From Escherichia coli (GTDB lineage: Bacteria; Pseudomonadota; Gammaproteobacteria; Enterobacterales; Enterobacteriaceae), in the NCBI RefSeq assembly GCF_045037415.1, contig NZ_CP173438.1: a stretch of DNA of 64,000 nt; one strand, 5' to 3'. The stretch's first letter is position 1. Each line of letters opens with the position of its first letter. Under the pieces are notes generated by a model that saw nothing but the letters and a program-made list of their open reading frames with translations, searched no databases and was not told the origin of the DNA. Both the position numbers and the translations under genes were made by a program. Positions 29,679-50,759 of the stretch are shown here, one piece after another.

Positions 29679-29698
29679 TACTGTATAAACAGCCAATA
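29679..29698. promoter_or_regulatory. LexA (SOS) box of dinG
   Basis: tactgtataaacagccaata is the reverse complement of the recalled non-canonical dinG SOS box TATTGGCTGTTTATACAGTA; about 15 nt upstream of the dinG ATG. Confidence 0.8.
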
Positions 29699-46733: not shown

Positions 46734-48755
46734 TCACGACGCGGCAATAAACAGCTCACGCAACTGATGCAACTGGTCACGAATTTGCGCCGCTTCTTCG
46801 AACTCCAGATTCTGCGCGTGTTGCATCATCAACCCTTCCAGTTCATGGATCTTCTGCTGTAACGCTTTAGGCGACATATCCATCGGCACATTATCCGGCT
46901 CAACAATCGGGCGCGATTTTCCTCTGCCCTTCGCTTTGGTTTTGGCAATGTTCTGCCCCAGCGCCAGGATATCGACCACTTTCTTGTTCAAGCCTTGCGG
47001 CGTAATGCCGTGTTCCTCGTTGTACTTCTGCTGTTTCTCGCGGCGACGTTCGGTTTCGCCAATCGCTTTCGCCATTGATGGGGTGATCTTATCGCCGTAG
47101 AGAATCGCTTTACCGTTAACGTTACGTGCCGCACGACCAATGGTCTGGATCAACGAACGTTCGGAACGCAGGAAGCCTTCTTTGTCAGCGTCGAGGATCG
47201 CCACCAGCGAAACCTCCGGCATATCCAGACCTTCGCGCAGTAAGTTGATCCCTACCAATACGTCGAACTCACCCAGACGCAAGTCGCGGATAATCTCCAT
47301 ACGTTCGACGGTATCGATATCTGAGTGAAGATAACGCACGCGCTCACCGTGTTCTTCGAGATATTCAGTGAGATCTTCCGCCATCCGCTTGGTCAGAGTT
47401 GTAACCAGTACGCGTTCGTTAATTGCCGCTCGCTGACGAATCTCCGATAGAAGATCATCCACCTGTGTCGCTACCGGACGCACTTCAATAATCGGGTCGA
47501 GTAAGCCTGTTGGACGCACAACCTGATCCACCACATCGCCACCGGATTTTTCCAGCTCGTAATTACCCGGCGTCGCCGAAACATAGATGGTTTGCGGCGC
47601 TAATGCTTCGAACTCTTCAAATTTCAGCGGGCGGTTATCCAGCGCTGATGGCAAGCGGAAGCCGTACTCCACCAGTGTCTCTTTACGCGCCCGGTCACCG
47701 CGATACATGCCGCCAATTTGTGGAATGGTGACGTGAGATTCATCGACCACCAGCAGCCCATCAGCAGGCAGGTAATCAAACAGCGTCGGCGGTGGCTCAC
47801 CCGGTCCACGACCGGAGAGGAAGCGCGAGTAGTTCTCAATCCCCGAACAGTAGCCTAGCTCGTTCATCATCTCCAGATCAAACTGGGTACGCTGGGTCAG
47901 CCGCTGCTCTTCCAGCAGTTTGTTGTTTTCCAATAGCACTTTACGTCTGGCGGCCAGCTCTTCTTTGATCTCCTCCATCGCCTGGACGATGCGCTCGCGT
48001 GGCGTGACGTAGTGCGTTTTCGGGTAGATGGTAAAACGTGGAATAGTGGAAACAATCTGCCCGGTCAGCGGGTCAAATAACGACAATCGTTCCACCTCCT
48101 CGTCAAACAGCTCCACGCGAAGTGCAATGTCATCCGATTCTGCCGGGAAGATATCAATCACCTCGCCACGAACACGGAAAGTACCACGCTGGAATGCTTG
48201 ATCATTACGGGCATATTGCAGCTCCGCCAGTCGGCGCAGGATCGCGCGCTGATCGATAATCATACCGACCGTGAGATGGAGCATCATCTTGAGATATAAA
48301 TCAGGATCGCCCAGACCATAAATCGCGGAAACAGACGCCACCACAACCACATCACGTCGCTCCAGCATCGCTTTGGTGGCGGATAAACGCATCTGTTCGA
48401 TATGTTCGTTTACCGAGGCATCTTTCTCAATAAAGGTGTCGGAACTCGGTACATAGGCCTCCGGCTGATAGTAGTCGTAGTAGGAGACGAAATATTCCAC
48501 CGCGTTTTCTGGGAAGAATTCTTTCATTTCGCCATACAGCTGGGCCGCCAGCGTTTTGTTGGGCGCAAGTACCATGGTTGGGCGCTGAAGGTCAGCAATG
48601 ACATTGGCAATGGTGAAGGTTTTCCCGGAGCCAGTCACGCCAAGTAACGTCTGGTGCGCCAGGCCATCTTCCAGCCCCTCTTCGAGACGTCGAATCGCCT
48701 CCGGCTGATCGCCAGAAGGTTTAAAAGCGGAATTCAGTTTGAACGGTTTACTCAT
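46734..48755 (-). CDS. uvrB: excinuclease ABC subunit B
   Basis: 673 aa; Walker [10 protein letters not shown]; helicase motifs; C-terminal UVR domain. Confidence 0.96.
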
Positions 48756-48831
48756 GAGTCGCTACCTGAAGGAGTTGGGCGGGCAGGTATGTAATTTTAC
48801 TCGTCGTACTTAATTATGCCAACAAATTATA

Positions 48832-48847
48832 CTGGATAAAAAAACAG
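48832..48847. promoter_or_regulatory. LexA (SOS) box of uvrB
   Basis: CTGGATAAAAAAACAG fits CTG-N10-CAG; about 77 nt upstream of the uvrB ATG. Confidence 0.8.
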
Positions 48848-49151
48848 TTCATCACCATAATATTTCTGTTACAGCGTAAACTCCGCTGTCAATCATGAAC
48901 AAGATTTACTCTGCGGCGAGATAAAACTCCGGCCTTACCGGGTTATCCCCAAAGCAACGGCTTTTTTAACATTTGTCAAGATGATTGATGACAGTTTTAT
49001 GGCAAGAGATGCCTGTTCAGTGACTGCCATTGCAATTATCTAACCTGTTAAAAAATAAAAGATATTTCTTTGAGCTGTCTTTAACGCCAATTCGCGTGCA
49101 AGCCGCGTATTCTCTCGCTTGCCTCGTGTTTTCTAACTCTAATACACATGG

Positions 49152-49174
49152 TTATCCACAGGAATAGTGGATAA
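49152..49174. promoter_or_regulatory. pair of inverted DnaA boxes upstream of uvrB
   Basis: TTATCCACA and the reverse complement of TTATCCACT, 4 nt apart. Confidence 0.65.
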
Positions 49175-49233
49175 CTGTCTGCAGCCCCTATCCCCCGCCG
49201 CCTGGGCAATTCCCACATTCACCGCATGATGCG

Positions 49234-49325
49234 GAGGTAAAATTTTTTTCGTGATTTTTTTAGAATTTAATTGGTTAAATTGCAGTCAATCGGAGACACG
49301 ATCTCGCTCGCAATTTAACCAATTA
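49234..49325 (-). terminator. bio operon terminator (after bioD)
   Basis: 16-17 bp inverted repeat ttaattggttaaattgc / gcaatttaaccaatta followed on the minus strand by U-rich tract. Confidence 0.7.
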
Positions 49326-49333
49326 CAGGATGA

Positions 49334-50011
49334 CTACATTAAGGCAAGATTGATGTACTTTCCGGTTGCCGCATTTTCTGGATTTTCTGCAAGCCAGGGA
49401 ATTTCGCCCAGCAGCGGCGCGGGAATCATGCGGGTGAGCGTGGTCATATATTCAGCGTGACGTTTTCCCGGAGGCGTGACATCGTTCGCCACCCACCCCG
49501 CCAGAGTCAGTCCGGCGTGTAGTATTGCCTGCGCAGTCAACATCGCGTGATTAATACAGCCGAGTTTCACGCCCACAACCAGTATCACTGGCAGTTGTTC
49601 CTGTGTTACCCAATCCGCAAAAGTGAAAGTGTCAGAAAGCGGCGTAAACCAGCCGCCAGCACCTTCCACTAACACCCAGTCAGCCTGTTGTTCAAGCGCG
49701 CGTAATCCGGCGCTCATTACCAATGCTTCTATCGGCCTGCCCTCTTGCGCGCTGATGATATGCGGCGAGGTGGGTTCTGCGAAGGTGTAAGGATTTACCG
49801 TTGCGTAATCCAGCTGCAGGCTACTGTTGCGCTGTAACGCCAGCGCGTCACTATTACGTAAGCCTTTCGGGGTCTTTTCGCTGCCAGAGGCCACCGGTTT
49901 GTAACCTGCCGTCCGGTAGCCTGCTGCCTTTGCGGCTTGTAAAAGCGCGCAGCTGGCGACAGTTTTCCCCACTTCGGTATCCGTTCCGGTGACAAAATAA
50001 CATTTACTCAC
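49334..50011 (-). CDS. bioD: dethiobiotin synthetase
   Basis: 225 aa from a GTG start ([17 protein letters not shown]...); P-loop GTDTEVGKT; overlaps the bioC stop. Confidence 0.9.
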
Positions 50012-50759
50012 GAGCAATCACTCCCAAAAAAAGATGATACGTCAGAGGATATCGCCCCTGTTGTTGCGGCCAGGCCAGTTGCAATCGCTGCAACTGCGAA
50101 CGCGTTAATATTCGCGGGTCACGCCCTTCATGAAGATGCGTGGCACCGATGCCTTTCAGCGAACGCATGGCACTGAGCGCATCATCAAACCACAGCGTGA
50201 TGGGCTGAATATAATGTTGATAATGCACGGCGTTTAGCGACTGTTCGATTTCATCTGGCGGTAAAAAGCGATTAGCATGCGGACGCTCGTCCACCGCCTG
50301 CCACGCCTGATGCAGTTCGGGTAACGATCCCTGCACCAGCGTGGTAAACGCGACCACGCCTCCGGGGCGCACCACCCGATACAGCTCGCGGAGTGCCGTG
50401 GATAAATTACCGCACCACTGCACCGCGAGATTGCTCCATGCAAGATCGAACGTCGCAGTCGCTAACGGCAGGGATTCGATATCTCCCGCCAGATAATGGT
50501 CTGCGGCATCCTTCTGGCGTGCCTGAACAAGCATTGGCGGAGAGAGATCTAACGCAGTCACCTGCGCGTGACGCTCTCGCCAGCGGCGGCTCATCCAGCC
50601 TGGTCCACAACCCGCATCCAGTACGCGGGTGTATTTACGCTGTGGGAGCATTGCCAGTAAGGCGTCAGCACTCTGGCGCTGTAGATCGGCGTGTTGCTCA
50701 TAGTGTGCGGCTGCCCGTCCAAATGCCGCAGCAATGGCTTGTTTATTAACCGTTGCCAT
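50004..50759 (-). CDS. bioC: malonyl-ACP O-methyltransferase
   Basis: 251 aa from [13 protein letters not shown]...; SAM-binding VLDAGCGPG. Confidence 0.92.

Follow-up and report, generated by a model that had tools for sequence, protein, structure and literature searches.

The bioD-uvrB spacer of Escherichia coli carries the uvrB SOS box and, in its paired DnaA boxes, the replication-control element DARS1

The spacer between bioD and uvrB in Escherichia coli contains matches to the binding sites of two proteins, LexA and DnaA, which raises the question of whether these sites form one control region of uvrB or serve separate ends. We examined the spacer within a 64,000-nucleotide stretch of E. 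coli DNA, referred to throughout as the window. The original prediction combined an SOS box and two inverted DnaA boxes into a multi-promoter control region of uvrB, and closed the spacer with a long-stem bio operon terminator. The coordinates it gave for the LexA and DnaA boxes, and the 578-bp length of the spacer (48756-49333), were all found to be correct when read from the sequence. We consider it almost certain, taking the explanation as a whole, that the spacer is the known bioD-uvrB intergenic region with two separate protein-binding modules that have already been characterised, the LexA box and DARS1. The uvrB SOS box, the uvrB promoters P1 to P3 and DARS1 are all recorded in the literature and are unchanged in this window. 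For these sites the present analysis established their presence, exact sequence, geometry, non-randomness and deep conservation.

The spacer corresponds to positions 812,948-813,525 of MG1655, from which it differed by about 3% outside the DARS1 core. It was 100% identical to the same region of E. coli SK1144, in which RefSeq annotates uvrB and bioD at either end and no feature in between. The spacer was found in 5424 of 5426 complete E. coli genomes, at one place per genome and with 97-100% identity; the five lowest-ranked full-length matches sampled from this comparison had identities of 97.1-97.6%. No known RNA family was detected when positions 48600-49500 were scanned against Rfam at a permissive threshold, the sole match being a meaningless one to a eukaryotic scaRNA (E = 0.8). 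The features that were recovered are listed in Table 1.

Table 1. Features of the bioD-uvrB spacer and its flanking genes, in window coordinates. Mismatches of DnaA boxes are counted against TT(A/T)TNCACA.
Feature	Position	Strand	Remarks
uvrB CDS	46734..48755	-	ATG at 48755; 673-aa ORF; annotated as uvrB in the identical stretch of E. coli SK1144
uvrB promoter P1	48794..48822	-	-35 TTGGCA 48822..48817, 17-bp spacer, -10 TAAAAT 48799..48794; consensus scan 10/12
uvrB promoter P2, -10 (presumed P2)	48826..48831	-	perfect TATAAT; weak -35 TGATGA/GTGATG around 48850-48855
uvrB LexA (SOS) box	48849..48830	-	AACTGTTTTTTTATCCAGTA; core CTG-N10-CAG, CTGGATAAAAAAACAG, 48832-48847; identical to the published box
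Distal DnaA box	48943..48951	+	TTATCCCCA; 1 mismatch; oriented as boxes II and III
Putative IHF-consensus-like 13-mer, degenerate	49053..49041	-	TTTTAACAGGTTA; 2 mismatches to WATCAANNNNTTR
Conserved flank adjoining box III	49095..49139	-	conserved block in the 24- and 70-sequence alignments; invariant within Escherichia
uvrB promoter P3, approximate place	49139..49181	-	from the published P3 fragment; overlaps the DARS1 core
DARS1 DnaA box III	49140..49148	+	TAATACACA; 1 mismatch; head-to-tail with box II, 3-bp gap
DARS1 DnaA box II	49152..49160	+	TTATCCACA; complete consensus (0 mismatches)
DARS1 DnaA box I	49166..49174	-	TTATCCACT (AGTGGATAA on the plus strand); 1 mismatch; opposite box II, 5-bp gap
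AT-rich stem-loop	49268..49325	-	arms 49268-49283 and 49310-49325; begins 10 nt after the bioD stop
bioD CDS	49334..50017	-	stop TAG 49336..49334; from the ORF list and the RefSeq annotation of the identical E. coli stretch

The LexA site was scored with a symmetric matrix made from 18 E. coli SOS boxes, which did not include uvrB. At 23.4 bits it ranked first in the window, above the best of 200 shuffled windows (20.1 bits), and fell within the range of the training boxes (13.0-28.1 bits). The second-ranked match was the dinG box at 29679-29698, dinG being one of the training boxes. The core of the site reads CTG GATAAAAAAA CAG, with nine of its ten central bases A or T, and the whole 20-mer agrees letter for letter with the published uvrB box (PMC6015884). 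The predicted LexA box is thus the SOS box already described for uvrB (Sancar 1982; van den Berg 1985; Wurihan 2018). A LexA box of at least 14.5 bits preceded uvrB in 69 of 70 Enterobacterales loci.

The position of the box is close to both of the proximal promoters. It shares 2 nt with the TATAAT of P2, and its end lies 7 nt upstream of the P1 -35 hexamer; LexA-box1 has been described as sitting between the -35 and the -10 of uvrBp2 (PMC6015884). Footprinting has revealed tight protection of the uvrB box by LexA, and mutation of the box relieves the control of P1-2 (PMC6015884). Data from a lexA deletion have also been published for the identical box sequence. LexA dimers on a box that overlaps P2 and lies just upstream of P1 would keep uvrB transcription low, and this repression would end when DNA damage leads to RecA-stimulated cleavage of LexA.

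Both hexamers of P1 were kept across Enterobacterales in the alignments, and we infer from PMC6015884, and from where it lies with respect to the LexA box, that TTGGCA-17-TAAAAT is P1. P2 was not called by the consensus scan because its -35 is poor, and in the P3 region the sigma-70 consensus scan found no good promoter match. In the work of van den Berg et al. from 1985, P3 is said to start about 320 bp upstream of P2. The published uvrBp3 fragment spans -567 to -280, counted from the start of P1. Taking that start to be near 48787, the three DnaA boxes are found inside the fragment, at about -353 to -387. The window agrees with the published promoter arrangement (van den Berg 1985; Wurihan 2018) in having P1, the TATAAT of P2 and DnaA boxes within the P3 fragment. 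Wurihan et al. also propose weak additional LexA boxes 2-4 and DnaA boxes 1-4, and of these we placed the conserved TTATCCCCA of the window, which probably belongs to the “potential DnaA boxes 2-4” of PMC6015884. Since the DnaA boxes and the LexA box lie inside published promoter fragments, multi-promoter control of uvrB holds. The DnaA boxes are, however, known chiefly for a different function.

Single DnaA boxes were not enriched in the 64-kb window, where 3 exact matches to TTWTNCACA were observed and 5.1 were expected. Their arrangement in the spacer was nevertheless unusual. The inverted pair TTATCCACA ggaat AGTGGATAA (49152-49174) was unique in the window even when 3 mismatches were allowed, against a chance expectation of 0.17, and in only one place did three DnaA boxes of at most 1 mismatch fall within 40 bp. 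This group of boxes is situated about 300 bp upstream of the LexA box. Boxes III and II together read TAATACACA tgg TTATCCACA, which is the DARS1 double box of PMC11317965; in that DnaA ChIP-seq study of MG1655, cTAATACACAtggTTATCCACAg is listed as the DARS1 double DnaA box upstream of uvrB. A DARS core is defined by a box I opposite box II at a 5-bp space (PMC6868365), with box III oriented as box II. Box II is the only complete consensus box of DARS1, boxes I and III having one mismatch each (PMC6868365, PMC5742627, PMC11724364). As the box sequences, their orientations and the 5-bp and 3-bp gaps all match the published definition, the paired boxes are DARS1. The inverted pair had been placed correctly by the original prediction, which missed the third box, TAATACACA, and the identity of the element.

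The locus is that of DARS1 in E. coli K-12 (bioD-uvrB intergenic, 17.5 min), with an identical core and conserved flank. Core and flank were invariant among the window, MG1655, four other E. coli, a divergent lineage and E. albertii. The flank adjoining box III is probably the DARS1 “regulatory region” of about 50 bp, which enhances ADP release in vitro (PMC5742627). Release of ADP from DnaA, and not regulation of uvrB, is the best-documented job of DARS1 (PMC6868365, PMC5742627, PMC11724364). [quoted passage not shown] LexA and DnaA binding, ADP release and repression are taken here from the literature on MG1655, the sequence of which is identical over the core, and would be expected to apply to the window on that ground. 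In the mechanism proposed for DARS1, ADP-DnaA would bind the consensus box II first and then recruit partners to boxes I and III. The head-to-head DnaA pair on boxes I and II would lose ADP, and the empty DnaA would leave and rebind ATP, leaving more active initiator available for the following replication round. The geometry of the three-box core and the ADP-release mechanism are common to DARS1 and DARS2 (ygpD-mutH intergenic). Unlike DARS2, which has a mismatched box II and needs IHF and Fis on a long regulatory region, DARS1 of E. coli is reported to need no protein activator (PMC11724364).

Regions upstream of uvrB were taken from 80 species of Enterobacterales and Aeromonadales. The three-box core was present in the same orientation in 79 of the 80 loci, 330-553 bp upstream of the uvrB ATG, and was lacking only from that of an insect symbiont. 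TGTGGATAA was invariant in 79 of the 80. The core travels with uvrB and not with bioD: in Enterobacter and others the distance from bioD to uvrB is about 1,460 bp, as against about 590 bp, and in Enterobacter cloacae the extra space is occupied by an opposite-strand ORF of an ABC-type ATPase. The 250 bp nearest the uvrB ATG held no LexA box in Aeromonadales, where the DARS1 core and uvrB are separated by a tRNA-Asn gene encoded on the opposite strand. Retention of the core in the absence of a LexA box, and with a tRNA-Asn gene in between, suggests that the core has its own function, separable from the regulation of uvrB, as would be expected of DARS1.

Helical phasing between the core and the LexA box was considered as well. 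The distances between the two cluster at 324-327, 313-320 and 303-308 bp and looked periodic, but a Rayleigh test on unique distances was weak (uncorrected p = 0.18 at 10.5 bp and 0.02 at 11 bp), and phasing was rejected. The variation in these distances was wholly within the part between the distal DnaA box and the LexA box, which ranges from 39 to 196 bp.

Two other accounts of the LexA and DnaA sites were weighed against the identification given above. Sites of this kind might be chance matches without function in an AT-rich spacer, given that single DnaA-box matches were not above expectation and that CTG-N10-CAG alone is a loose pattern. However, the LexA site outscored every shuffle, the exact inverted DnaA pair was both unique and unexpected, and binding data have been published for both kinds of site. 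The DnaA core was kept across Enterobacterales and Aeromonadales and the LexA box across Enterobacterales. The conservation and the shuffle controls refute the chance reading, to which we assign a negligible probability. It is somewhat less far-fetched, yet still very improbable, that the paired DnaA boxes are solely an operator of uvrB, where DnaA would do nothing other than repress P3 alongside LexA. The boxes do overlap the P3 fragment; a TG-to-CA change in the consensus DnaA box derepresses P3 5.9-fold (PMC6015884), and uvrB expression is reported to be raised more than threefold in a dnaA(A345S) mutant. Yet these three boxes, spaced as they are here, constitute the core of DARS1, for which ADP release in vitro and a replication phenotype in vivo have been published. 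The head-to-head geometry with its 5-bp gap is common to DARS2, which is not a uvrB-type promoter, and in Aeromonadales the core persists despite an intervening tRNA gene between it and uvrB. Provided that the published DARS1 assays hold, an operator as the sole function is refuted. We therefore retain DARS1 as the identity of the paired boxes. These boxes also extend over P3, the weak upstream promoter, and DnaA occupying them would therefore repress this minor promoter of uvrB as well.

The stem-loop at the bioD end of the spacer had been predicted to be the long-stem terminator of the bio operon. The inverted repeat is real and is well placed after bioD, with arms of 16 nt that are 100% complementary. 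The 116-nt stretch around it folds stably on the bio-sense strand (-24.6 kcal/mol, z = -3.25). The stem-loop resembles canonical intrinsic terminators in being stable and in following closely on the last gene of an operon, but it differs from these in three ways. The stem is AT-rich, with G-C in 4 of its 16 pairs; the arms are 26 nt apart, enclosing a very large and partly paired loop; and the tail on the bio-sense strand is A-rich (AAAUUCUAAAAAAA / AAAUUCUAAAAAAAUCACG) and has no U-tract. On the other strand, T-runs occur before the stem and not after it. The terminator scan did not call this stem-loop at 49268-49325. Its distribution was restricted to E. coli lineages and E. albertii, among which it showed changes, and it was not conserved outside Escherichia, other genera having unrelated sequence after bioD. 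Since the stem-loop lacks the defining features of an intrinsic terminator, terminator function is unproven, and what stands of the prediction is a well-placed inverted repeat confined to Escherichia.

That the stem-loop is nonetheless a working Rho-independent terminator of the bioBFCD operon is possible, but we think it rather unlikely. In its favour, besides the position and the stable fold, 3 of 4 stem substitutions (in the divergent E. coli strain 23AR0151 and E. albertii) still pair, as G-U, but only on the bio-sense strand, and a hairpin with a T-run follows bioD in some other Enterobacterales (Edwardsiella, Morganella, Proteus and Xenorhabdus). The G-U-compatible changes hint at a role at the RNA level; against this, three are not enough to serve as evidence (p about 0.125 if transitions are equally likely to fit either strand), and the fourth substitution, in the divergent lineage L002, breaks a pair. 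A search for a hairpin and T-run after bioD in 57 related loci found at least 5 T in the tail in 4 of them, but this search is unreliable, as it takes the most stable hairpin and many genera have another gene after bioD. No bioD-proximal 3′ end was found in the Term-seq supplements of PMC7815308, which were searched for bioD and uvrB ends and for positions 813,00x-813,49x. This absence is weak evidence because the bio operon is repressed or poorly expressed in rich medium. A repeated mobile element was also considered as an origin of the stem-loop and was rejected, the spacer being found at one place per genome in the 5424 E. coli genomes. Most probably the bio operon mRNA has its 3′ end at this stem-loop, which might act as a non-canonical terminator or as a stabilising hairpin behind a factor-dependent end.

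On the uvrB side of the DARS1 core, conservation ran past the 101 bp of DARS1, and the core was included in a conserved module of about 235 bp in 80 related genomes. We aligned 70 Enterobacterales sequences, consisting of 69 loci and the window, and all nine columns of the distal DnaA box were at least 90% conserved. In 62 of these 70, an exact TGGGGATAA was located at +219..+228 (mode 223), counted from the first base of box I, and in Aeromonas AGTGGATAA was found at about +236. Between the core and the distal box, on the uvrB-sense strand, relatives had a putative IHF site at +118..+124 from box I. It matched WATCAANNNNTTR with at most 1 mismatch in 62 of 80 with the core and perfectly in 33 of 80. 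Control offsets gave 0-8 of 80, and a perfect site occurred anywhere in 1.6% of shuffled segments. On the 5′ side of the putative site, relatives had a tract of 87% A+T. In Escherichia and Citrobacter the putative site had 2-3 mismatches. No IHF site in DARS1 was described in the literature searched, a search that lay outside Fujimitsu 2009 and its supplements.

The DARS1 peak reported by DnaA ChIP-seq has its coordinate at 813,331 (PMC11317965), which coincides with the distal box. This point is 195 bp upstream of the uvrB ATG, and roughly 200 bp separate it from the DARS1 core (about 813,107-813,141). This offset may reflect peak-calling resolution only, or DnaA occupancy in vivo may not be centred on the core.

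From these alignments we suggest, tentatively and with more doubt than belief, that DARS1 might be the upstream end of an ancient module of about 235 bp, common to Enterobacterales and Aeromonadales and made up of the core, an IHF site at +121 and the distal box at about +223. Such a module would have been ancestrally IHF-dependent and looped, like DARS2 and datA, and the activator-independence of E. coli DARS1 would be derived. The fixed-offset IHF-consensus site of DARS1 in many other genera would then resemble the situation in DARS2, and a ChIP-seq peak on the distal box would fit a two-site complex. The extended module, with its fixed-offset IHF-like site and distal box, is possibly new and of moderate interest. 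It could give a testable lead on the regulation of DARS1, which reviews have called undetermined in vivo.

For the spacer itself, the useful correction is one of identity: its DnaA boxes are a replication-control element and not merely an operator of uvrB. Regulation of uvrB and control of replication occupy the same DNA, which matters wherever this spacer is annotated or deleted.

Comparison of the window with the uvrB upstream loci of 80 Enterobacterales and Aeromonadales species (L002-L081) places the DARS1 core at the upstream end of a module of about 235 bp (window 48943-49174) kept across both orders. A distal DnaA box, TGGGGATAA, recurs in these loci at an almost constant +219 to +236 from box I, the minus-strand DnaA box of the core, and its Aeromonas version is AGTGGATAA. 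The spacing from the distal box to the LexA box is variable (39-196 bp). The DnaA ChIP-seq peak labelled DARS1 lies at MG1655 position 813,331, and the double box cited for it is the core sequence (PMC11317965). This position corresponds to about 48950 in the window, placing the peak centre on the distal TTATCCCCA box, some 200 bp away from the three-box core.

A match to the IHF consensus was found within the module at a constant offset (see table). Among the 80 sequences with a core, the match was perfect in 33 and had at most one mismatch in 62, while controls gave 0-8 of 80. Its 5′ flank is A/T-rich. The match has decayed to 2-3 mismatches in Escherichia and Citrobacter. A literature search turned up no earlier report of an IHF site in DARS1.

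Features of the bioD-uvrB region and of one Aeromonadales locus
Feature	Sequence	Position	Strand	Location
IHF-consensus match (candidate site)	WATCAANNNNTTR (consensus; degenerate in the window)	window 49041-49053	minus	+118 to +124 from box I, constant across L002-L081
Small terminator-like hairpin	CCGGTAAGGCCGG, then AGTTTTATCT	window 48929-48941	minus (uvrB-sense)	between uvrB promoters P3 and P2
Two A7 runs	AAAAAAATCACGAAAAAAATTTT	window 49236-49262	uvrB-sense	between bioD hairpin and DARS1 core
tRNA-Asn gene (example)		L071 2293-2368	opposite	between DARS-like module and uvrB

In many genera bioD and uvrB lie about 1,460 bp apart, as against about 590 bp. Such long spacing was seen in Enterobacter cloacae (L008), L009-L011, L015, L021, L032 and others. 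ORFs between the two genes were listed for one of these loci, that of E. cloacae, where an opposite-strand ORF of 240 aa for an ABC-type ATPase (L008 1027-1749) takes up the extra space; thus, in this species, the core adjoins uvrB and not bioD.

The terminator-like hairpin directly follows the distal DnaA box. It is probably of no significance, since its stem is changed in O157:H7 and E. albertii. The A7 runs are partially conserved among Enterobacterales and may form either an intrinsic DNA bend or a protein-binding site. When E. coli genomes were searched with the spacer, the single-piece match in strain ZH063 (NZ_CP014522.1) was limited to spacer positions 233-578. As the spacer also matches at two places in this record, an insertion or rearrangement parting DARS1 from the uvrB promoters is suggested.

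The second-ranked match of the LexA matrix in the window was the established SOS box of dinG, TATTGGCTGTTTATACAGTA (29679-29698). As this box belonged to the training set, its rank gives no independent check.

In ten Aeromonadales loci (L071-L076 and L078-L081), an opposite-strand tRNA-Asn gene separates the DARS-like module from uvrB, and no LexA box was found in the 250 bp next to the uvrB start. In these species uvrB may lie outside the same SOS control, but the DARS-like core is retained.
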